DNA from: Treponemataceae bacterium
GTDB lineage: Bacteria; Spirochaetota; Spirochaetia; Treponematales; Rectinemataceae
Length of the DNA: 64,000 nt
NCBI GenBank assembly: GCA_963678065.2
Contig: CAXXVZ010000004.1
Span: 448,001-512,000, forward strand
Direction of reading: 5' to 3'
The notes under the pieces were generated by a model that searched no databases, was not told where the DNA came from, and was given only the letters and a program-made list of their open reading frames with translations. The first letter of the stretch is position 1; every line of letters begins with the position of its first letter. The translations under genes and the position numbers were made by a program. Below are positions 3,040 through 14,738 of this stretch, piece after piece.

Positions 3040-4452
3040 TCAGAACGTGAAAGCTTTGTACGAAAGATCCAGCTTGAGGTCGATCCTATCAGGCGCGCCC
3101 CAGGAGACAAAGGTCATGGGCAGGGAAACGGCGAAGCTCGAGACGAGATTCGGCGTCAGGGTGATCTTGGGCGTCACCTTCACGGAGGAGTCGGAGATGT
3201 TCGCTATCACCGTGGTTCCCAGGGCGAGGACATCGTCGAAGAGTCCCGTCAGGTTCGCGCTGCCGGCTGCGTACCACATGCCCGCCTGTGTCCTGTCCTG
3301 CTGGTTCAGCAAGGTGTAGGCGGCGGATGTCTTCAGGATGGAAGTGTCCTCGTAGCCTGTCCCATTGTAATACCCCTGTCCGCGGAGTTCGATGGAATAC
3401 AGATTGTCGCGGTTGTCGTAGGCCCACTTGAAGCCCAGTGTGCCCTGGAATACCGGCCGGTCCGCAATCGTGTAGGTCGCGTAGGCGGGGGAGATTCCTG
3501 TGGCGCGGAGGTAGGTCCTGTCCGAACCCCAGGCCGCGACTCCCTCCCCGTAGACGTCGAAGGCTCCGATCGCCCCGGAGAACATCGTCATGAGGCGGGG
3601 GCTCACCGCGAGATCGGGCCGGTAGTAGCCTCCGAGGCTGAGCTCGAAGTTGCCGACGACGACATCGGTCTTGGCAGCCACGGCGCTGCCCATGGGATCG
3701 AAGTTCTTCGCGCCTATGACGTAGACGGTGGCGAGATTCTGTTTGAAGGGTATGTCGGCCTTGAAGGCGAAGGGCCCTTCCCGCTTGGCCTCAGGATCAT
3801 CCGGGTCGATCTGGGCCAGACTGAGGATATCCGCCGGGCTGTACCAGTAGCCGACGCCCCAGCTGACGTACTGTTTCCCGAACCTGAAGAAGACCGAACG
3901 GTCGATCGCCGTGTCCGCGAAGGCTTCCAGAAGGGGGAAGGTCCAGAGACTCGACGGCGTCGTAGTATCGTACAGTGTCTTTCCGGATATATAGAAGCGA
4001 GAGAGCTCCGAAGGCCTGACATCCGCGTAGTAGTCGAAGAGTGTCGAGTAGATCCCGGCCGGACTGACGATGGTCGTGTTGTCCAGGTGGAGCTTGACCG
4101 TTTTCGAGGGAAGGAAGTCGAGTCCGAAAACAGACTTCGCGGTGGGCAGGAGACTGTTGCGGGCGACCGTTCCCGTAGAGGGAGGGTCGAGGTTCCAGAA
4201 TCCGGCGACTATGGCGCTCGCCGTGCCCGTCAGCTGCACCGAAGGTGCAAATGGTTTCTGGGCCACGAGGGTCACCGTCCCCGCGGCAGCCTCGGTGGGA
4301 TCGACCACCGTCACGAGGTCGGAGCTCCCCCCGAAGAGGGCGTTCTCGTCGAGGGGAACCGAAACGTTGGTGATGTCCTGGGACCAGGAGGAGAAAACCG
4401 CGGTCAGCGCGAAGAGCGGAAGAAGCGCGATTTTATGGGGAAATGTCCTCAT
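3040..4452 (-). CDS. Putative outer-membrane beta-barrel protein
   Basis: Signal peptide, alternating hydrophobic strands, RFGKQYVSWG motif, C-terminal Phe; sits downstream of the LolA-like gene. Confidence 0.65.
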   Translation of the reverse strand: MRTFPHKIALLPLFALTAVFSSWSQDITNVSVPLDENALFGGSSDLVTVVDPTEAAAGTVTLVAQKPFAPSVQLTGTASAIVAGFWNLDPPSTGTVARNSLLPTAKSVFGLDFLPSKTVKLHLDNTTIVSPAGIYSTLFDYYADVRPSELSRFYISGKTLYDTTTPSSLWTFPLLEAFADTAIDRSVFFRFGKQYVSWGVGYWYSPADILSLAQIDPDDPEAKREGPFAFKADIPFKQNLATVYVIGAKNFDPMGSAVAAKTDVVVGNFELSLGGYYRPDLAVSPRLMTMFSGAIGAFDVYGEGVAAWGSDRTYLRATGISPAYATYTIADRPVFQGTLGFKWAYDNRDNLYSIELRGQGYYNGTGYEDTSILKTSAAYTLLNQQDRTQAGMWYAAGSANLTGLFDDVLALGTTVIANISDSSVKVTPKITLTPNLVSSFAVSLPMTFVSWGAPDRIDLKLDLSYKAFTF

Positions 4453-4461
4453 CTGCGGCTC

Positions 4462-5397
4462 CTACTTGGCAAGTCGTTCGAGATATGCTTTGGAGAAGAC
4501 ATCGTCGGGAATGGGTTTCGTCGAGATATCGGTGTAGGTCGACTGGGTGCGCTTCTCGGGGATGAGTCCGTCCTGGTATATCTGGGTGGTGGGTATGTAG
4601 GAATCGCCGATCTGCACGTAGTTGGTGTAGTAGGATGTGCGCAGAAGCTTCTTGGAAAGGCTGTATTCCTCGACCTTGAGAACTATCGTCCTGTCCTTTT
4701 CGACCCACATCTTTATGTACGGAAAGGCGACCTCATCGTTCGTGGCCTTCATCTCGGCCATGAGGACATCATACTTGCCGAGCTTGGTCGGGACGACGCT
4801 CTCGACCGAATAATCGAGGGAGCGCTGCGTGCGGCGGAAGTCGGAATTGCGGGCCGTCGTGTCCTCGTATTGGTCCTTCAGTGTTGTGTGCATGAACTTT
4901 CGACTCGTCGGGTCGTAGCGCCACATGTTGTTGTCGACGCGGAGCATGCCCTGGCCCTTGCGCGATTCGGGTTCGATCGTGACCATGAGGAAGGCGTCGT
5001 CGCGGTCGCGGCGGTAGATCATGTTTTTTCGTGTCATGGTGCCGCGGTCGGGGCTGACGCTCACCATGTTGATCGTCGCCGTCATGTCCGAATTGTAGAA
5101 GCTCGAACTGATGTCGGTTCTCTTCACGAGTTCGAAGAAATCCTTCGCGGTGAAGTCCTTGATGTCGGCGGGAAGAGGCTTGTCGGAGGCGGGCCCCGTA
5201 AGGGGAGAGCGCATAAAGGGCTGCCCCTGTCCAGGTCTGGAACCCTGGCCGGACTGGGTCGACGAGGAACCGGAGCCGCCGGAGCTGCCGGTCCCGGAAC
5301 CTGTTCCCTGAGTCTGTGTCTGGGCCTGGGCCGCGGTCGCGAGGATGACGAGGAGAAACGAAACGGAGAAAAAACGCAGGGCGATTTTCTTCAGCAT
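4462..5397 (-). CDS. LolA-like outer-membrane lipoprotein-sorting family protein with Gly/Ser/Gln-rich N-terminal linker
   Basis: Start MLKKIALRFF at 5397 with AAGGAG RBS; signal peptide; PESRKGQGMLRVDNNMWRY and IPDDVFSKAYLE match this family. Confidence 0.8.
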   Translation of the reverse strand: MLKKIALRFFSVSFLLVILATAAQAQTQTQGTGSGTGSSGGSGSSSTQSGQGSRPGQGQPFMRSPLTGPASDKPLPADIKDFTAKDFFELVKRTDISSSFYNSDMTATINMVSVSPDRGTMTRKNMIYRRDRDDAFLMVTIEPESRKGQGMLRVDNNMWRYDPTSRKFMHTTLKDQYEDTTARNSDFRRTQRSLDYSVESVVPTKLGKYDVLMAEMKATNDEVAFPYIKMWVEKDRTIVLKVEEYSLSKKLLRTSYYTNYVQIGDSYIPTTQIYQDGLIPEKRTQSTYTDISTKPIPDDVFSKAYLERLAK

Positions 5398-5408
5398 GAT
5401 GGACTCCT

Positions 5409-6761
5409 TTACGTTGTTGTTCTCATGGCCTCGGCGGGAACGAGGGCGGCGGCGCGCCTCGCGGGGCCGCTCACGGCCGCAAACGACATGAGTATGACTG
5501 CTCCGAACGTGAGGGCGAGGGAAACCGCACCGGGCAGGAAACTCAGCCTGCCCCGCGAGAGGGCGAGGGCCAGGCTGCCCGAGGCGCTGAAGGGAAGGAG
5601 GCCGGCCGCGTAGCCGACGGGAAAACTCAGGGCGAGGCCCGCCGAGCAGCCCAGGATCGCTACGGAAACCGCCTCCAGGACAAAGATGCGGAACACATGC
5701 CTCCTGCGGAAACCGATGCAGCGAAGGGTCCCGATCTCGCGGGTCCTCTCCATGAGGACCATGCGGTAGGTGTTCGCTATCCCCGCCGCGGTGAGGGCGA
5801 GCATGATCACGAAGACAGCGACGCCTATCCACCGGATCGTTCCGAGCACGGCGCCCGCCTGTCCGGAGAGCTCGTTGATACTCGCGACCCTGAGCATGCG
5901 CGATCCGGGCTCCGGAGCGGGCAAAGATGCGCCCGCGGCTTGATCCGTCCCGGCACCCGGGCCGCCCCGCCCCGGATCGGGACTGGCAGTCCGAGTGGCG
6001 GCCTGGCCGGCTTTTGTCCGTGGGGCGACGGGATACGAGGCGGCCAGGATGTCATGTATTCTGGCCGCAGCCGCGTCCGCCCCCGACGCGTCGTCGAGGA
6101 AGACGGCGAGGGACTGGAACCAGCCATCGGGGAGATTGAGGTCGGCGCGGAGGTCGCCGAAGCCGACGAAGGCGGCGAGAAGCCCGCCGGCCGCGGAATC
6201 GTCGTATACGGCCGCAAGCTTGTACTCGGTGACGTTCTGCTGGCCGCTCGCCGTGGAAAAGTGCGCGAGCAGGGTGTCGCCAAGACCGAGCCCGAATCGC
6301 CTGGCCGCCCTCGCGCCGAGGATGATGGCCCTCGGCTGAGCGGCCGCTTCGATGGAGCCGAGCGTGACGATGAGATTTTCGCGGTAGAGCCTGTCGGCGC
6401 TCCAGTCGACGCCACGGAGGGTGATCTGCTGCTCGCGGGAACCGAAGACAAGGCTCGCCTGGACGGAGACGATGGGCGAGACAGAGCGCGCTCCGGGGAC
6501 AGCGTCGGCTATCGCTTTAGCCATCGATCCGTCGTCGCTCATCCTCGTCTGTATCCTGCCCGAGGCAGAGCGCATGCTTCCGGTGATGATGACGTGGCCG
6601 CCTGTCGCGAGGGTGATGTTGTCCTGCACAGCCTTGTTCATCCCGGAGGTGAAGCCCGAGGAAAGGCAGATGATGAGGACAGCGAAGGCCACGGCCGAGC
6701 CGAGAAGGAGGCTCCGGCGCTTCTGGCGGGTCAGGTTCCGCATCGCCATGGTCAGTATCAC
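5409..6761 (-). CDS. FtsX/MacB/LolCE-like ABC permease
   Basis: AMRNLTRQKRRS N-terminus, large periplasmic loop, ERTREIGTLRCIG motif; GTG start with GGAGG RBS. Confidence 0.9.
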   Translation of the reverse strand: MILTMAMRNLTRQKRRSLLLGSAVAFAVLIICLSSGFTSGMNKAVQDNITLATGGHVIITGSMRSASGRIQTRMSDDGSMAKAIADAVPGARSVSPIVSVQASLVFGSREQQITLRGVDWSADRLYRENLIVTLGSIEAAAQPRAIILGARAARRFGLGLGDTLLAHFSTASGQQNVTEYKLAAVYDDSAAGGLLAAFVGFGDLRADLNLPDGWFQSLAVFLDDASGADAAAARIHDILAASYPVAPRTKAGQAATRTASPDPGRGGPGAGTDQAAGASLPAPEPGSRMLRVASINELSGQAGAVLGTIRWIGVAVFVIMLALTAAGIANTYRMVLMERTREIGTLRCIGFRRRHVFRIFVLEAVSVAILGCSAGLALSFPVGYAAGLLPFSASGSLALALSRGRLSFLPGAVSLALTFGAVILMSFAAVSGPARRAAALVPAEAMRTTT

Positions 6762-6774
6762 TTCGCCCTCCCCT

Positions 6775-8277
6775 TCAGTCGGATTGCATGGCCGTGACGG
6801 GTTTGACCCGCAGGGCGACGACTGTCGGATACCAGGCCGACAGAAGACTCAGGGCGCTTATCCACAGGAAGGCCTTGACAGCCGCCCCCGCGGAGACGCG
6901 CGGGACGAGGACGGGTCCGCCGAAAAGCGCCTCGAAAAAAAGATTCGGCGCGTGGATGCCCACCCTGGAAAGGACGAGAAGGATGAGCCCTCCCGCCGCG
7001 AGGCCGGCGAGTCCGGCGATGATGGCGAGGAAGGCCGTCTCCTGGAGGACCATGGAGCGGACGAAGGCGCGCCTCGCCCCGATGGCGCGAAGGGTTCCTA
7101 TCTCGGCCACGCGCTCGCCTATCGAGACAACGAGGGCGTTCATGGTGATGATGACGACGACGACAGCCACGATGGACACGAGAAGGTCGAAGACGAGACG
7201 GACTGTCATGGCTGTGCGCGCGACGGTGCCGGCGCTTTCGACCCAGCCCTGCACGCGGGTGTCGACCTCGAGGCGGGCTGCCTCCTTTTCGACCGCGGCC
7301 ATAGTCCGCGAAGCGCTCTGGCCTTTCTTCATCGAGACGAGGAGGAATTGCCATGCGGGTTCGGGTTGATGTGACACCGTTGCAGAGGCGGGGCCCGCTG
7401 CGGCGCCGGTGGGAGGAGTCGCTCCGGTCGCGGCGGGAGAGGCTGTCGCCCCCGTCCCTGCTCCCGAGGTCGCGGCGGGAGAGGCGGCCGTCGCGGGTGT
7501 CTCGTCCGTGAACAGGCTGTCCGGGTTGAAGGACGCGACGAAAGCGCTCTCGGCGACAGTCAGCACGACAGGGCCGTCCCTGAGGCTCGCGAATCCCAGA
7601 AGATCGCGCATGGTATCGGCGTCGGCGAGTCCCATGTCCGCCAGGTCCCTGTTGTTCTGATTGAAGCGGAAGACCGCGCAGAGAGTCACTTCCCGGATGA
7701 CGGTCCCGGCCTGGTCCCCCTCGGCGCTCAGGATGATTCTGCTTCCGGGACCGACGGGAGCGGAACCGGCGCCTCCCAGCTTCCGGAGGGCCGATTCCGG
7801 CAGCATGACCCACGCGCCCTTCCCTGACTCCGGCCAGGAGCCGGAGACGAGCGTGATGTTCCCTGGGAAAAACTTTCGGTAGGAATCGATGTCGACGCCG
7901 AACATCGGCAGGCCGCCGAGAACCTGTTCCCCGAGTCCGATCGCGGTCCTGCCTGACAGCATCGGAAGGACGCCTCCGACTTCGGGCCTCGCGGACAGAA
8001 AGGAAGCGAGGGCCGCCGATTCCCTGATATGGGGCACGACTTCCTCTCCTCCGGAAGTCTCGGCGAAGACAGTCGTCGGAAAAACGGTGGGCCCGGTGAG
8101 CATGAAATCTCCGGTATATCCCTTGACGAAAATACGCTCGAGACCATTCACCGCCGTATCGATCAGGGAGTTCCCGACAAAGAGCACAGCTATGCCGAGA
8201 CACATGATCGTGCCTATCATGAGGGTCTTGGCTTTGTGGAGAAAGAGATTCCTGAACGCGATGGCGGAGGCGATCAT
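6775..8277 (-). CDS. FtsX/MacB/LolCE-like ABC permease with Ala/Thr/Pro-rich insertion
   Basis: IAFRNLFLHKAKT, ERVAEIGTLRAIG, C-terminal ALRVKPVTAM. Confidence 0.9.
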   Translation of the reverse strand: MIASAIAFRNLFLHKAKTLMIGTIMCLGIAVLFVGNSLIDTAVNGLERIFVKGYTGDFMLTGPTVFPTTVFAETSGGEEVVPHIRESAALASFLSARPEVGGVLPMLSGRTAIGLGEQVLGGLPMFGVDIDSYRKFFPGNITLVSGSWPESGKGAWVMLPESALRKLGGAGSAPVGPGSRIILSAEGDQAGTVIREVTLCAVFRFNQNNRDLADMGLADADTMRDLLGFASLRDGPVVLTVAESAFVASFNPDSLFTDETPATAASPAATSGAGTGATASPAATGATPPTGAAAGPASATVSHQPEPAWQFLLVSMKKGQSASRTMAAVEKEAARLEVDTRVQGWVESAGTVARTAMTVRLVFDLLVSIVAVVVVIITMNALVVSIGERVAEIGTLRAIGARRAFVRSMVLQETAFLAIIAGLAGLAAGGLILLVLSRVGIHAPNLFFEALFGGPVLVPRVSAGAAVKAFLWISALSLLSAWYPTVVALRVKPVTAMQSD

Positions 8278-9056
8278 GAGGCGGCCATGCGCCCCGAAGT
8301 CAGGCTGTCGGCGTTCCCGACGGACGCGTGATACTGTCGCTCCTGCCTGCCCCTCCGGAGATCCTCCACGACGAGACCGTCCCTGAGCCGTATGACGTGG
8401 TCGGCGATGCCTACTATCCCTGAGTCGTGGGTGCTGAAAATGAAGGTGGTCCCGAGTTCCTTGTTCATCCTCTTCATGAGGGCGACAATGCTCTCGCCCG
8501 TCGCCGAATCGAGGTTGGCCGTCGGCTCATCGGCGAGGACGACCGGCGGCCTCATGACGAGGGCCCGGGCTATGGCCACGCGCTGGCGCTGCCCGCCCGA
8601 AAGCTCGGCGGGTTTGTGGTTGCGCCTGTCGACGAGCCCCACGCTCTCGACAAGGTGGTCGATCCACTCGCGATCCGCGCCGCGGGCGACGCGGCCTGAG
8701 CCTTTTTCGAGAAGGCGCGGCAACTCGATGTTCTCGATGACCGACAGGACGGGCACCAGGTTGAAGGACTGAAAGATAAAACCGAGGCCGGTGTGCCGCA
8801 GGGCGGTCAGCTTTTCGTCGTCGAGCTTGCCCGTATCCTGGCCCAGCACCGTAACGACGCCTTCGGTGGCGGTATCGATGCATCCTATGAGGTTCAGAAT
8901 GGTCGATTTCCCCGATCCCGAGGGGCCGGCGATGGAGATGAAATCCCCGCGGGAAATCCCGAAGCTTATGCCCCGGACAGCCTTGACCTCGGTGCTGCCG
9001 AGGGCGTAGGTCTTGTGGACGTTTTCCAGCCTGACAATGATGTCGTTTTCCTGCAT
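8274..9056 (-). CDS. LolD/MacB-type ABC ATP-binding protein
   Basis: Walker A GPSGSGKS, LSGGQRQR, ADEPTANLD, THD. Start MQENDII at 9056 with GGAGG RBS. Confidence 0.93.
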   Translation of the reverse strand: MQENDIIVRLENVHKTYALGSTEVKAVRGISFGISRGDFISIAGPSGSGKSTILNLIGCIDTATEGVVTVLGQDTGKLDDEKLTALRHTGLGFIFQSFNLVPVLSVIENIELPRLLEKGSGRVARGADREWIDHLVESVGLVDRRNHKPAELSGGQRQRVAIARALVMRPPVVLADEPTANLDSATGESIVALMKRMNKELGTTFIFSTHDSGIVGIADHVIRLRDGLVVEDLRRGRQERQYHASVGNADSLTSGRMAAS

Positions 9057-9135
9057 GTCGAAGGATCCTCCGGCGGAATGCCCGTGCAAGGAGATCCCGC
9101 GGACTCGAATGTACCTGATCGCTGTTCTTTTTTCC

Positions 9136-9152
9136 ATTAAACGGGGATTAAA
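9136..9152 (-). promoter_or_regulatory. 11-bp-spaced direct repeat (TTTAAT-N5-TTTAAT), candidate OmpR-family site
   Basis: ATTAAA at 9136-9141 and 9147-9152, just upstream of the -35 position of a minus-strand TACATT -10 (9108-9113). Confidence 0.45.
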
Positions 9153-9305: not shown

Positions 9306-10763
9306 ATGGCATACAGGGATCTGCAGGATTTCATGGCTCGCCTCGAGGAACGGGGCGAGCTTGTCAGGATAAAAGTCGAGGTCGACGCCGAACTCGAGAT
9401 CACGGAAATAGCCGACCGCGTCATGCGCTCAGGCGGCGCGGCTCTCCTCTTCGAAAAAGTCAGGGGTTCGGACTATCCGGTCCTCATCAACGCGATGGGG
9501 ACGGAATCGCGCATGGCGCTCGCCCTCGGGGCAGAGAGCCTCGACGCGAAGGCGAAGGAGATCGAGGATCTCCTCGGCTGGGTCTGGAAGCAGGTCCGCG
9601 GCTTCTCTGTGTTCTCGTCGATCCCAGAGGCTCTGCCGAAACTGCCGATCGCTCTCTCCCTCCTTCCCAAAAATGTGGCGAGGCCGCTGTGCCGCGAGGT
9701 CATCGACGACGAGGCCGGATTCGACAGCCTCCCTGTGCTCAAGTGCTGGCCGAAGGACGGGGGGCGCTTCTTCACCCTGCCCGTGGTCTGCACGGTGGAC
9801 CCCGAGAACGGGGCGCAGAACTGGGGCATGTACCGCATGCAGGTCTACGACGACAGGAGCTGCGGCATGCACTGGCACCTGCACAAGGACGGCGCGCACT
9901 TCTTCCAGAAATACCGCGAGCGCGGCCAGAGGATGCCCGTCGCCGTCGCCCTCGGCTCGGACCCCGCCGTCACCTACGCGTCCACCGCTCCGCTTCCCGA
10001 GGGCGTCTGGGAGGCCATCTTCGCGGGCTTCCTGCGCGGCAAGGCCGCGGAAGTGACGACGGCCACACTCTCCGGCATCAAGGTTCCGGCAGACGCGGAA
10101 TTCGTCCTGGAAGGCTACGTCGACCCCGCCGAATCGAGGATCGAAGGCCCCTTCGGCGACCACACCGGCTTCTACTCCCTGGAGGACGAGTACCCCGTCT
10201 TCCACCTGCAGAGGATCACGCGGCGGAAAAATCCCGTCTATCCGGCCACCATCGTCGGCATCCCTCCCAAAGAGGACTGCTTCATGGCCAAAGCCACCGA
10301 GCGGCTCTTCCTGCCCTTCCTGAAACAGCTCTGCCCCGAGATCGCCGACCTGACCATGCCCCTGGAGGGCGTCTTCCACAACTGCGTCATCGTGTCGATC
10401 AAGAAGCGCTTTCCCGGCCACGCCCGCAAGGTCATGGACTTCATCTGGGGCATGGGGCAGATGATGTACACCAAGCTCATCGTCGTGGTGGACGAGGAGG
10501 TCGACCTCAAGAACCTCTCGATGGTCGCCTGGAAGGTCTTCAACAACATCGACGCGCGGCGCGATCTCGTCCTCTCGGACGGTCCGCTGGACGCCCTGGA
10601 TCACTCCTCGCCCATGCCCCGCTACGGAACGCGCCTCGGGATCGACGCGACGCGGAAAGGGCCGGACGAGGGCCACACGCGCCCATGGCCCGACGGCCTC
10701 GCCATGAGCCCGGAGATCGTCGACCTCGTCACCAGGCGCTGGAAGGACTATGGAATTGACTGA
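9306..10763 (+). CDS. ubiD: UbiD-family prFMN-dependent decarboxylase, MqnL (menaquinone) type
   Basis: MAYRDLQDF start; NWGMYRMQ, HWHLHKDG, EGPFGDHTGFYS, GMGQMMYTK. Confidence 0.92.
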   Translation: MAYRDLQDFMARLEERGELVRIKVEVDAELEITEIADRVMRSGGAALLFEKVRGSDYPVLINAMGTESRMALALGAESLDAKAKEIEDLLGWVWKQVRGFSVFSSIPEALPKLPIALSLLPKNVARPLCREVIDDEAGFDSLPVLKCWPKDGGRFFTLPVVCTVDPENGAQNWGMYRMQVYDDRSCGMHWHLHKDGAHFFQKYRERGQRMPVAVALGSDPAVTYASTAPLPEGVWEAIFAGFLRGKAAEVTTATLSGIKVPADAEFVLEGYVDPAESRIEGPFGDHTGFYSLEDEYPVFHLQRITRRKNPVYPATIVGIPPKEDCFMAKATERLFLPFLKQLCPEIADLTMPLEGVFHNCVIVSIKKRFPGHARKVMDFIWGMGQMMYTKLIVVVDEEVDLKNLSMVAWKVFNNIDARRDLVLSDGPLDALDHSSPMPRYGTRLGIDATRKGPDEGHTRPWPDGLAMSPEIVDLVTRRWKDYGID

Positions 10764-11679
10764 GCCGCGGACCGAGGCGCCCGGACCGGATGCGAAGGCC
10801 CCGGACGGAGCCGGAAAAACTTTCGCAGGCAAGCTCGGCATGATCGGCGACGCGGTCATGATCCGCCACACCCTCTTCTCCCTGCCCTTTGCCCTCTCGG
10901 CCCTTCTTCTCGAGACAGGCGGTCACCCGCCTCTCGGAAAGACGGTCTGGATACTGCTCGCTGCGGCCTCGGCGCGCAACGCGGCCAACGCCATCAACCG
11001 CATCGTCGACAGGACCATCGACGCCCGCAACCCCCGCACGGCGGGGCGTCACCTTCCGTCAGGGAGGCTCGCGGTGAAGGACCTGGGATGGTTCAGCGCG
11101 GCCATGCTCGCGGTCTTTGTCTTCTCGACGGCGATGCTCGGCCCCCTCTGCCTGGCGCTCCTCCCCGTGGCCGGGATACTCGTTTTCGGCTACTCCTACA
11201 CCAAACGCTTCACCTGGCTCTGCCACGCATGGCTCGGCCTCACCTGCTCGGCCGCCACGATGGGCGCCTTCATCGCGATCGCCGGACGCTTCGAGTTCAG
11301 GTACTTCGTCATGACGGGAGCGGTGGCGGCCTGGGTCTGCGGTTTCGACATCATCTACGCGCTGCAGGACGTCGGGGTGGACCGCGCGCAGAAACTCCAC
11401 TCCATCCCCGCCCGCTTCGGTCCCAGGATCGCGAGGCTCATGGCGGCCGCATGCCACCTCGCCGCCGTGGCGGGATTCGCCGCGATGCCGTTCTTCTGGG
11501 AAGGGCTCGGCGCCGGCTACTGGCTCGCCCTCGCCCTCGCATCGGCGCTCCTCGTGGCCGAGCAGGTCATCGCCCGGGGCGGGACAGGACGGCATATCCG
11601 CATCGCAGCCTACAGTATCAACGAAATTATTCCGATTATATATACGATTGGCATTGTCAGCGAATTATACATACTATAA
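10750..11679 (+). CDS. ubiA: UbiA-family polyprenyltransferase, MqnP type
   Basis: HTLFSLPFA, NRIVDRTIDARNPRT, YSYTKRFT, FDIIYALQD; multiple TM helices. Confidence 0.9.
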   Translation: MELTEPRTEAPGPDAKAPDGAGKTFAGKLGMIGDAVMIRHTLFSLPFALSALLLETGGHPPLGKTVWILLAAASARNAANAINRIVDRTIDARNPRTAGRHLPSGRLAVKDLGWFSAAMLAVFVFSTAMLGPLCLALLPVAGILVFGYSYTKRFTWLCHAWLGLTCSAATMGAFIAIAGRFEFRYFVMTGAVAAWVCGFDIIYALQDVGVDRAQKLHSIPARFGPRIARLMAAACHLAAVAGFAAMPFFWEGLGAGYWLALALASALLVAEQVIARGGTGRHIRIAAYSINEIIPIIYTIGIVSELYIL

Positions 11680-11682
11680 AAT
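11654..11682 (+). promoter_or_regulatory. Internal sigma70-type promoter for ubiX (leaderless)
   Basis: TTGTCA (11654-11659), 17 bp, TAAAAT (11677-11682), 6 nt, ATG 11689; locally very AT-rich; no SD. Confidence 0.6.
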
Positions 11683-11688
11683 AACTGC

Positions 11689-12297
11689 ATGGCCCGATAC
11701 CTCGTTTGCCTGACCGGCGCCTCCGGCGCGATCTACGGCATCAGACTTCTTTCGGCCCTCGCCTCGACGGGAGCCACGGTGCACCTCGCCGCCTCTTCAT
11801 GGGGAGCCCGCGTTGTCCTGGAAGAAACGGGGCGCCCTCTCGGGTATTGGGTCGGCAAGATCAGGACCGCCGGCGGCCCCGGCGGCAGACCAGCCACCAT
11901 CTCAGTCCACGCCTCCGACGATCTCGGCGCCCCCGTCGCCTCGGGCAGCTTCAAGCTGGACGGAACGGCCATCGTGCCCTGTTCCATGGGCACGGTCGGG
12001 GCCCTCGCCTCGGGAGCGGTGTCCAACCTCGTCCACCGGGCCGGGGCGGTCGCCCTCAAGGAAGGATGGCCCCTCGTCCTCGTACCCCGCGAATCGCCGC
12101 TCTCCCTCGTCGCGCTGGAAGGGCTCGTCAAGCTGAAAGAGTCGGGCGCGACCATCCTTCCTGCCTGTCCCGGTTTCTACAACCGGCCCAAGGCGATCGA
12201 CGAACTGATAGACCAGATCACCTACCGGGTCCTGGACCACCTCGGTCTTCCGACGCCCGGCGCCCCTAAATGGAAAGACACAAGGGGCGAGGAGTAA
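11689..12297 (+). CDS. ubiX: Flavin prenyltransferase UbiX
   Basis: TGASGAIYG, APVASGSF, PCSMGT, VPRESP, PGFY. Confidence 0.95.
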   Translation: MARYLVCLTGASGAIYGIRLLSALASTGATVHLAASSWGARVVLEETGRPLGYWVGKIRTAGGPGGRPATISVHASDDLGAPVASGSFKLDGTAIVPCSMGTVGALASGAVSNLVHRAGAVALKEGWPLVLVPRESPLSLVALEGLVKLKESGATILPACPGFYNRPKAIDELIDQITYRVLDHLGLPTPGAPKWKDTRGEE

Positions 12298-12301
12298 TTC
12301 C

Positions 12302-13219
12302 GTGAAGCGAACAGCCACCTTTCTCACCTTCTTGGCCCTCGTGGCCTTCTCTCTCGTCGCGCAGGGCAGAGAACTCAGGATCGGCATTCTCCCCGACGCC
12401 GACTCCCTTCCCCTCATGGTAGCCGAGGCCGCCAACGACTTCGCCGCCGAGGGCGTCGCGGTCAGACTCGTGAAGTTCCAGAATCCCGTCGAGCGGGACG
12501 CGGCATTCCAGGCGGGAGCCGTGGACGGCGTCATCGGCGATATCCTCGCCGCGGCCCTCGCTGTCCAGGGCGGCTTCGAGGTCAGGATCACGAGCCTCAC
12601 GGACGGACGCTACGGCATCGTCGTCGGACCCGATTCCGGCGTTTCCTCCCTGAAAGATCTCGCCGGAAAACAGATAGGCCTCTCCGCGAACACCATCATC
12701 CAGTACATGGTCGACAGCTTCATGACCGATGCGGGAGTCCCGCCTGAGAAAATCCTCAGCCTCGCCGTTCCCAAGATGCCCGTCAGGCTCGAGATGGTCC
12801 TGGGAGGCCAGACGGCCGCCGCCGGACTTCCCGAACCTCTCCTGACCCTCGCCAAAATCCGAGGCGGAAAAATCCTCGCCTCCACCGATGACTCGGGACT
12901 GCGCGCCGGCGTCATCCTCTTCACGAAGAAGGCCGCAGACTCGATGCAGGCGGAGATCCGCGCCATGTACAAGGCTTACTGGAGAGCGGCCAGGGCGATC
13001 AACGCGGACAACGAAGCCTACAGACCCTTCCTCGTCTCCAAGGCCAACTTTCCCGAGGAGACGGTATCGGCCTACCGCTTCGTCCGGTACGAAAAACCGC
13101 GGCTTCCCCTCCGCGCAGACATCGTTCCCGTCCTCTCCTGGATGAGGTCGAAGGGATTGCTGAGGGCCCCGGTCGATCCTGACAGCCTCCTCGACGGTAG
13201 AGCCCTGGCGGGATGGTAG
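12302..13219 (+). CDS. ABC substrate-binding protein, SsuA/NMT1/THI5-like
   Basis: Signal peptide; RIGILPDADSLP, ERDAAFQAGAVDG, LPEPL; followed by ATPase and permease. Confidence 0.8.
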   Translation: MKRTATFLTFLALVAFSLVAQGRELRIGILPDADSLPLMVAEAANDFAAEGVAVRLVKFQNPVERDAAFQAGAVDGVIGDILAAALAVQGGFEVRITSLTDGRYGIVVGPDSGVSSLKDLAGKQIGLSANTIIQYMVDSFMTDAGVPPEKILSLAVPKMPVRLEMVLGGQTAAAGLPEPLLTLAKIRGGKILASTDDSGLRAGVILFTKKAADSMQAEIRAMYKAYWRAARAINADNEAYRPFLVSKANFPEETVSAYRFVRYEKPRLPLRADIVPVLSWMRSKGLLRAPVDPDSLLDGRALAGW

Positions 13220-13983
13220 AGCTCGAAGGACTGTCGGTCGCCTACTCCACTCCCCGTGGTCCCGTCCGGGCCGTGGAAGATGTCTCGATTCTGTTCGCCC
13301 GGGGCGGCATACACGCCATAATCGGACCTTCCGGCTCCGGCAAGACGAGCCTCGTCCAGGCGATGGCCGGCCTTTTCGTCCCGCAGGCCGGGACGATCAG
13401 GATCGACGGCTCTCCCCTGTCGGGCATCCGCCCCCGGACCGCGGTCATTTTTCAGGATTTCGGACTCCTGCCCTGGAAGACCGTGATCGCGAACGCAGAG
13501 CTCCCCCTCCTTTTGCGCGGGATGGACCGGCGCGAGCGGAGAAGACGGGTCATGCCCATCCTCGAGGAGCTGGGCCTCGAATCCTTCCTCGAACTCTATC
13601 CGGTCAGACTCTCGGGCGGCATGCAGCAGCGACTCGCCGTGGCGCGGGCCCTCGCGGCCGAACCCGACCTTCTCCTCATGGACGAGCCCTTCTCCAGCCT
13701 GGACGCGCTGACGCGGGAAAACCTCCAGGAAACCCTTCTCGAAGTCCACGCGCGCCACGGCGCGACCATAATCCTCGTCACCCACTCCATCGAGGAGGCG
13801 GCTTACCTCGCCGACACGGTCACGGTGATGACCGGACGAAATCCGGGAAGGATCAGCGCGCGGATCGAGACGGAGAAAAACGCCCGGAAGACCGGGGAAA
13901 GCGGGAACAGGTCCTTCCGATCGAGCCCCGGCTTTCTCACCCTGACGACATCGATACGCGCGGCGCTGGAAGCGGAGTCATGA
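13213..13983 (+). CDS. ABC ATP-binding protein, SsuB/TauB-like
   Basis: GPSGSGKT, LLPWKT, LSGGMQQR, MDEPFSSLD, VTHSIEEA. Confidence 0.93.
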   Translation: MVELEGLSVAYSTPRGPVRAVEDVSILFARGGIHAIIGPSGSGKTSLVQAMAGLFVPQAGTIRIDGSPLSGIRPRTAVIFQDFGLLPWKTVIANAELPLLLRGMDRRERRRRVMPILEELGLESFLELYPVRLSGGMQQRLAVARALAAEPDLLLMDEPFSSLDALTRENLQETLLEVHARHGATIILVTHSIEEAAYLADTVTVMTGRNPGRISARIETEKNARKTGESGNRSFRSSPGFLTLTTSIRAALEAES

Positions 13984-14738
13984 AAAAGAAAGGACTGGCT
14001 TCCCTCGCGGGCACGGCGGCGGCGCTCGCCATCCTCATCACTCTCTGGGGGCTCGCCTCGGCCCTCATCGCGAAGCCCTTCCTCCCGGGCCCTCTCAGGA
14101 CAGCGCTCCGCGCAGCCGAGCGCCTCGCCGACAGCAGGCTCCTTTCGCATCTCGGCGCTTCGGCGTGGAGGGTCTTCCTCGCCCTCGCCGCAGCAGGTCC
14201 CGCCGGTTTCGCCCTCGGCCTCGCGGCGGGCCGCTCGCGCCGCCTCGACACGCTGTTCTCCCCCTTCGTCTACATTCTCCATCCCCTGCCCAAGGTCGCC
14301 TTCCTGCCCGTCATCATGCTCCTCCTGGGCCTGGGGGATGCGGCAAAGATAACGCTGATCTGTCTCGTCATATTCGGCCAGCTCTTCGTCAACGCCCGGG
14401 ACGCCGCAAAGGATGTGCCGGAGCGCCTCGTCGACTCCGTCCGCTCCCTGGGCGGCAGCGGGGCCGACATCCTCAGACACGTCGTCCTCCCTGCATCCCT
14501 GCCCTCCCTCCTGTCCTCCCTGCGGGTGGCGCTCGGAACCTCCATCGCCGTCCTCTTCCTCTCCGAAACCTTCGCGTCGGAGAGCGGGCTCGGCTGGTAC
14601 ATTGTAGACGCATGGTCCAGGGTGGATTATCCGGATATGTACGCGGCCATCATCGTCCTCTCCGCCTTCGCCCTCGTCATCTTCGGGCTGATAGACGCCG
14701 CAGAAAGGGTCGCCTGCCGCTGGAGGGACAGGGATTGA
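13980..14738 (+). CDS. ABC permease, SsuC/TauC-like
   Basis: PLPKVAFLP, VRSLGG...VVLPASLP, GLGWYI; ATGA overlap with ATPase. Confidence 0.9.
   Translation: MKKKGLASLAGTAAALAILITLWGLASALIAKPFLPGPLRTALRAAERLADSRLLSHLGASAWRVFLALAAAGPAGFALGLAAGRSRRLDTLFSPFVYILHPLPKVAFLPVIMLLLGLGDAAKITLICLVIFGQLFVNARDAAKDVPERLVDSVRSLGGSGADILRHVVLPASLPSLLSSLRVALGTSIAVLFLSETFASESGLGWYIVDAWSRVDYPDMYAAIIVLSAFALVIFGLIDAAERVACRWRDRD

Follow-up and report, generated by a model that had tools for sequence, protein, structure and literature searches.

Six adjacent genes in a 64,000-nucleotide stretch of a Treponemataceae bacterium genome (assembly GCA_963678065.2, contig CAXXVZ010000004.1, positions 448,001 to 512,000; this whole stretch is called the window here) probably form, judging by their families and context, an operon for the salvage of menaquinone (vitamin K2), in which an ATP-binding cassette (ABC) system would import a soluble dihydroxynaphthoate for use by MqnP and MqnL. 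The genes, all intact and with uninterrupted open reading frames, lie on the plus strand at 9306-14738 in the order mqnL-mqnP-ubiX-binding protein-ATPase-permease, and their host genome, as far as sequence comparison reveals, has a synthase for the quinone tail, finishing enzymes and likely quinone users, yet no detectable ring synthesis. A wider proposal, to which we give even chances, is that the missing import system for the ring precursors of menaquinone is this binding-protein family, serving both the futalosine (6-naphthoate) and the classical (2-naphthoate) type of salvage, and that the family marks overlooked anaerobes (about 10% of the sampled Bacillota, together with free-living spirochaetes) that would build demethylmenaquinone from 1,4-dihydroxy-6-naphthoate made by their neighbours.

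Late menaquinone genes and the missing ring pathway

Family membership was assigned by comparing the gene products with NCBIfam and Pfam models against the curated cut-offs. The first gene, mqnL (9306..10763, +, 485 amino acids), encodes a UbiD-family decarboxylase of the menaquinone (SCO4490) type, which carries an EGPFGDH motif at 280 and scored 595.9 bits against TIGR03701 (cut-off 495.9) and 396 of the 788 bits needed against the ubiquinone UbiD model. It is 61% identical to the MqnL of a complete menG-mqnL-mqnP-mqnE-mqnA-mqnC cluster in another genome (G371). The adjoining mqnP-like gene (10750..11679, +, 309 amino acids) encodes a UbiA-family membrane prenyltransferase with both Asp-rich motifs, which exceeds the cut-off of the UbiA-like model TIGR01475 (242 versus 181 bits), reaches 98 bits against ubiA_proteo (cut-off 275), has no MenA model among the 20 matches listed, and is 46% identical to the MqnP of the same complete cluster. 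The third gene, ubiX/mqnM (11689..12297, +, 202 amino acids), encodes a flavin prenyltransferase (TIGR00421, 169 bits against a cut-off of 109); UbiX makes the prenylated flavin mononucleotide (FMN) cofactor of UbiD enzymes.

The spacings between the six genes are, in order, -14, +9, +4, -7 and -4 bp, and the G+C content of the locus, 64-67%, is similar to that of its surroundings. The mqnL, mqnP, ubiX, binding-protein and permease genes are each single-copy in the genome (tblastn, with matches listed for these five genes). A promoter scan upstream of mqnL detected no sigma-70-like site, and a sequence scan detected no terminator directly 3' of the permease gene; co-transcription of the six genes as an operon appears likely from their layout. 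Short, near-identical stretches of all six genes also occur in contigs of RNA libraries from one lake-water study; they were not used as evidence, since contigs do not reveal transcription or co-transcription.

The host assembly consists of 5 contigs and is 99.94% complete and 6.72% contaminated. In the whole assembly we found no match to PF02621 (MqnA/MqnD), TIGR03699 (MqnC; the model also detects MqnE) or MenB, and the MenD, MqnB and MenG/UbiE models gave weak superfamily matches alone (64, 44 and 48 bits against cut-offs of 244, 125 and 158, respectively). Likewise, MqnA, B, C, D, E and MenB sequences of other genomes, used as tblastn queries, found nothing in the host at E<=1e-4, and in the same search the MqnL and MqnP queries recovered the window genes (61% and 46%). 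The queries for MqnA, C, E, L, P and MenG came from the complete cluster of G371, those for MqnB and MqnD from G382 and that for MenB from G570, the labels MqnA, MqnD and MenB resting on places located in the MqnA/D and menB genome searches. Thus, the host genome holds neither the set that defines a complete futalosine pathway (mqnA, C, D and E plus mqnB or MTAN) nor that of the classical men pathway (menB plus menD). A preliminary description of the window had reported six contiguous genes with small overlaps or gaps and had stated that the early mqnA-E genes are outside the window, proposing a whole-genome search for mqnABCDE and men genes: the contiguity is confirmed by the spacings of -14 to +9 bp, and the search found the ring-building genes neither in the window nor elsewhere in this 99.94% complete genome.

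Other parts of quinone metabolism are present in the host. A chorismate synthase gene was found, as were cytochrome bd genes (cydAB) and a HepT-like polyprenyl synthase gene adjoining a 685-amino-acid NDH-2-like gene, whose label derives from PF07992 and context. A stand-alone MenA/DmkA-like gene (G000:C3:1561890-1562714, L028) scored 278 bits against a cut-off of 289; lacking menB and menD partners, it likely provides the cell with a second route of salvage, one for the 2-naphthoate isomer. A third UbiA-family gene (G000:C4:251106-251837; L064:8032-8889, -) scores 73 bits against PF01040 and matches no NCBIfam model at 1e-8; it is the gene immediately upstream of cydA-cydB, and the C-terminus of cydB bears a rubredoxin-like domain.

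Gene order and co-occurrence in other genomes

Using the binding protein as query, we obtained 24 loci, of which 19 have the order ubiD-ubiA-ubiX-binding protein and 17 have all six genes; since the same gene order is found in 19 of 24 related loci, the arrangement is not due to chance. Three of the other five loci stop at contig ends, and two, from Bacillota, have different neighbours, the binding-protein gene standing in the first directly before an over-cut-off MenA and in the second after ApbE, with a divergent NDH-2-like gene. Most of the closest relatives that have a name belong to Spirochaetota, several being Rectinema-like, and the host is probably a free-living spirochaete. The 23 genomes in which the closest relatives lie gave no MqnC/E match, and weak PF02621 matches (25-38 bits) occur in seven of the 23, the three inspected being other ABC binding proteins.

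Neighbour context was surveyed in Spirochaetota and Bacillota. A narrow profile matched 12 of 301 sampled Spirochaetota genomes, the window's own included. The 11 loci taken from 10 of the matched genomes comprise two with late mqn genes as neighbours, one next to a menA-like gene, one next to apbE, five without a recognised quinone neighbour and two weak matches (E ~1e-21) that the neighbour census does not include. The Bacillota census covered 60 of 123 places, picked by hand down the ranking with preference for places away from contig ends; ubiD-ubiA lies just upstream in 13 of the 60 and menA is adjacent in 5. ApbE, NusG-II, HepT, NDH-2 and cydB recur near the importer, importer copies adjacent to MenA have no UbiX alongside, and no recurring unknown enzyme gene stands beside the cassette in 71 loci. 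In a quick maximum-likelihood tree of 80 binding proteins, in which long branches were noted, mqnL-adjacent copies fall in about seven separate branches and menA-adjacent copies in about four; because the adjacencies occur in several separate branches, a single block passed on by descent does not account for the link.

Co-occurrence was profiled in 401 Bacillota genomes using a broad profile (106 proteins from 666 clusters, E<=1e-30) and without phylogenetic correction, p-values not being relied on. PF02621 matches below 47 bits were not counted as MqnA/D; the weak matches of G459 and G469 coincide with a control NitT/TauT family. The binding-protein family is present in 118 of these genomes, an MqnL-like gene in 134 (over the cut-off in 101) and a MenA-like gene in 147. 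All but three of the 118 carriers have either an MqnL-like gene (86) or MenA without an MqnL-like gene (29), 115 in total, and the family occurs in 3 of the 143 genomes having neither. No strong MqnA/D match was found in 42 of the 134 MqnL-like genomes, and all 42, called ring-less below, are also without MqnC/E. Importantly, the importer family is present in 41 of the 42 ring-less genomes versus 45 of the 92 with MqnA/D, and, if only over-cut-off MqnL is counted, in 40 of 41 versus 30 of 60, while the control NitT/TauT family was unbiased (7 of 42 ring-less versus 7 of 34 complete genomes). We rejected gaps in the assemblies as an explanation for the missing mqnA/D: none of the 42 genomes has MqnC/E either, and 38 of 38 controls drawn from the 92 MqnA/D genomes do have it. 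By position, the binding protein lies within 7 kilobases (kb) of mqnL in 31 of the 118 carriers, of menA in at least 13, and of mqnL or a listed menA in 40, with a chance of such proximity of about 0.5% per gene per genome and 23 weak menA places not listed; adjacency to mqnL is found in 23 of 41 ring-less versus 8 of 45 complete-pathway genomes.

Several arrangements were seen in the course of these surveys. L098 and L111 (G368 and G662) combine the cassette with apbE, a NusG-II-domain gene and a gene for a HepT-like synthase, and L098 also has a divergent NDH-2-like gene, so that one locus holds almost all of a unit for quinone building and flavinylation. In one Bacillota clade (L142, L146-L149), whose genomes have MenA and mostly no MenB, a few genes separate the importer from a preceding cydB and two cydDC-like ABC genes. 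Rearranged importers (L105, L122, L125, L131; in two cases around menA) have a TetR-family gene in front of the ATPase and permease genes, and its product may sense the importer ligand. An MqnL form of about 600 amino acids, found in 25 genomes (such as G429, G550 and G436), scores 464-495 bits, just below the TIGR03701 cut-off, and nearly always co-occurs with MqnA/D; by these features it is probably a true MqnL missed by that cut-off.

The importer, its ligand and competing explanations

The fourth gene of the locus (12302..13219, +, 305 amino acids) encodes an ABC substrate-binding protein of the NMT1/SsuA fold, a member of an uncharacterised family and a candidate naphthoate receptor. It exceeds the cut-off of PF09084, scores 72.8 of the 163.5 bits required by TIGR01728 (SsuA) and has an N-terminal signal-like hydrophobic helix, as judged by eye. 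It is followed by a NitT/TauT-type ABC ATPase (13213..13983, +, 256 amino acids) with Walker A, LSGG and Walker B motifs, which is over the PF00005 cut-off and has the TauB type as best NCBIfam match (212 of 357 bits; SsuB, 148 of 395), and by a NitT/TauT-type importer permease, BPD_transp_1 (13980..14738, +, 252 amino acids), which is over the PF00528 cut-off with 78 bits and below those of TauC (106 of 342), SsuC (102 of 347) and SaoP. The three Pfam matches and the fold matches place the system in the NitT/TauT (NMT1-like) importer superfamily, and its binding-protein architecture argues for import as the direction of transport.

The structure model of the binding protein, with a predicted local distance difference test (pLDDT) score of 93, matches SsuA, NrtA, PqqT, TauA and ThiY about equally (Z 25-29, 14-21% identity), and identity to the listed solved relatives is always 23% or less. 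Its best single-sequence PDB match is PqqT, a binder of the quinone cofactor pyrroloquinoline quinone (PQQ; E 6e-9). Conserved in at least 75% of 106 relatives are R65, D66, D80, N130-T131, R162, P177-x-P179 and W280. The P-E-P motif aligns with a PqqT stretch that differs between 9b1u and 9ooz (Y161W variant), an alignment that suggests that the motif lines the ligand cleft, and the invariant R65 and R162 could hold a ligand carboxylate. An importer for sulfonate, taurine or a thiamine precursor was considered and rejected, as the components are below the Ssu and Tau cut-offs and no sulfonate or thiamine genes are recurring neighbours. Also rejected was a divergent MqnA/MqnD enzyme, since the protein has no PF02621 match and ATPase and permease genes follow it; the MqnD and MqnA structures rank 14-17 against the model (Z 17-20), below true binding proteins. 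Some family members of 607-657 amino acids contain two matched stretches, that is, tandem binding domains (P0125, P0151, P0154, P0162, P0171; the P0154 cluster is from Chloroflexota), and two binding-protein genes look broken (L026:7001-7839 and G478:C1:1459584, with two tblastn segments suggesting a frameshift, and two stops).

In the route that we propose, a soluble dihydroxynaphthoate would attach to the binding protein in the periplasm and then enter the cell through the ATPase-permease pair. Gene context and co-occurrence point to 1,4-dihydroxy-6-naphthoate (DH6N) as the most likely ligand, and other microbes would be the source of the ring. MqnP would attach the polyprenyl chain made by the HepT-like synthase, and MqnL would presumably act after it, removing the 6-carboxyl with the prenylated FMN from UbiX. 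The retention of MqnL and UbiX suggests that the imported ring bears a carboxyl that is not removed by prenylation, which fits the 6-isomer; MenA itself removes the 2-carboxyl. The final product is likely demethylmenaquinone, because menG was not found in the host genome and is missing also from most ring-less Bacillota and from the other genomes of the spirochaete-type set, and this product would link NDH-2 to cytochrome bd or another acceptor. Standing also beside MenA of the classical pathway, the importer family is not specific to futalosine genes, and the window's importer may additionally supply the 2-isomer, 1,4-dihydroxy-2-naphthoate (DHNA), to the host's separate MenA/DmkA-like enzyme. 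The preliminary description had read the transporter as an aromatic-acid importer feeding a membrane quinone and had named linkage to mqn genes in other genomes as a check; the linkage was borne out by position (19 of 24 loci) and by co-occurrence (115 of 118 carriers), and together with the missing ring genes it supports that reading, the ligand being deduced from context.

Several observations weigh against this salvage reading. The fold is uninformative on the ligand, as binders of sulfonate, nitrate, PQQ, taurine and pyrimidine match the model alike (Z 25-29), and the mqnP/L/M functions are described in passages of PMC4746308 as genome-based predictions. Neither mqnL nor a listed menA lies within 7 kb of the binding protein in 78 of the 118 carriers. 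The importer is not confined to auxotrophs, because 45 of the 92 genomes able to make the ring keep it and because in G318, a genome with MqnC/E, it stands in a late mqn cluster. The family is absent from 95 MenA-only genomes; menB is missing in 23 of the 29 MenA-only carriers versus 33 of the 48 non-carriers tested of these 95, which is no significant link (p=0.43), and p-values in general overstate, since the sampled genomes are related. Finally, the window's MqnP is under the cut-offs of all MqnP models (238 of 430 bits for the best, MqnP_DT; 199 of 420; 168 of 375); these curated models are lineage-specific, and the MqnP of the complete cluster also misses them (350 of 430).

That the prenyltransferase is below the MqnP cut-offs would also suit a trio acting on an imported non-naphthoate aromatic acid, for example a hydroxybenzoate, and yielding a different prenylated phenol or quinone. 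UbiA, UbiD and UbiX act on 4-hydroxybenzoate in the ubiquinone pathway; moreover, ring-less MqnL proteins are 56-62% identical to the window's versus 51-52% for those of four complete-pathway census loci, and MenG is missing in 34 of the 42 ring-less Bacillota and in 22 of 22 other genomes with the spirochaete-type cassette or its binding protein. We consider this explanation very unlikely, however, given that MqnL is over the menaquinone-specific cut-off and far from that of ubiquinone UbiD (396 versus 788 bits), that it is 61% identical to an MqnL in a complete futalosine cluster whose MqnP misses the cut-offs as well, and that the importer family adjoins over-cut-off MenA, the substrate of which is a naphthoate.

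The retention of the importer in half of the ring-making genomes would suit two further explanations. The importer may carry another cargo of the quinone system, such as flavin for UbiX or ApbE, a prenyl phosphate, an intact short-chain quinone or a redox shuttle, for which the ApbE-like neighbours in 5 of 71 loci, the NDH-2, NusG-II and HepT neighbours in some, and the PQQ-binding PqqT as best PDB match could be cited. This too is very unlikely: a need for flavin or prenyl groups would not predict presence in 41 of 42 genomes without ring genes, the MenA-adjacent copies have no UbiX alongside, and import of an intact quinone would make the retained MqnP and MqnL needless. Alternatively, a replacement route of unknown kind makes the ring, and the transporter is a passenger or recaptures a leaked intermediate; recapture would explain why complete-pathway genomes retain the importer, the host has chorismate synthase, and non-orthologous replacements are known in menaquinone pathways according to passages of PMC4746308. 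Such a route is highly improbable in view of the joint lack of MqnA/D and MqnC/E in 42 genomes, the lack of a recurring unknown enzyme gene near the cassette in 71 loci and a control NitT/TauT family without such a pattern.

As for the flanks of the putative salvage locus, a divergent LolD-like exporter operon lies upstream at 3040-9137 (-). It encodes an ATPase of the LolD type, a pair of FtsX-like permeases and proteins resembling LolA and an outer-membrane protein, the last labels of this list being assigned by eye; the ATPase gene is also upstream of mqnL in about 10 related spirochaete loci. A PAS histidine kinase gene lies downstream of the six genes.

Relation to known systems

Passages of PMC4746308 and PMC3937554 equate mqnP, mqnL and mqnM with SCO4491, SCO4490 and SCO4492 of the late futalosine (DH6N) pathway, and MqnP is called a membrane prenyltransferase in part of bioRxiv 2021.10.26.465979. 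In the passages of PMC4746308, the order of prenylation and decarboxylation is left open, mqnP/L/M are reported only alongside the Mqn pathway among 254 gut genomes, and import genes for menaquinone precursors 'remain to be annotated'; these passages and those of PMC5738691 hold that transporters for soluble menaquinone precursors should exist, yet have been neither annotated nor described. Our literature searches, with subscription papers and supplements outside their coverage, found no paper naming a naphthoate importer. For this predicted transporter class we can now name one particular candidate, a binding protein that is soluble and easy to express and is strongly supported by the genomic evidence, which makes the importer question testable by one ligand screen. 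The ring-less futalosine-type salvage class comprises 42 of the 401 Bacillota genomes and about 20 spirochaete genomes. Passages of PMC13386864, in which no discussion of uptake was found, score pathways by gene quorum, with 6 futalosine proteins required, and surveys of this kind would likely score such genomes as being without a menaquinone pathway. If the proposal is true, DH6N would be a community growth factor and a possible culture supplement for such anaerobes.

Compared with the late futalosine genes mqnP/L/M, the window has the same three clustered families, with MqnL over its cut-off and 61% and 46% identity to the complete cluster, but it is without mqnA-E and menG and is joined to an ABC importer. 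The DHNA salvage by MenA (with or without MenG) alone, described in passages of PMC4746308 and PMC5738691, follows the same logic, in that the early steps are lost, prenylation is kept and the neighbours' ring is used, and at least 13 of the 118 Bacillota carriers have the importer family next to menA; the window, however, has futalosine-type late enzymes, which need a separate decarboxylase. With SsuABC, TauABC, ThiXYZ, NrtABCD and PqqT the importer shares the fold and the three-gene architecture (Z 25-29), whereas its binding protein is at most 23% identical to theirs and has conserved residues of its own, and the system is below the SsuA, TauB, TauC and SsuC cut-offs. Thus, we conclude that the enzymes belong to known or predicted families, and that what is new is the ring-less futalosine-type salvage arrangement together with a well-supported candidate for the predicted importer class.

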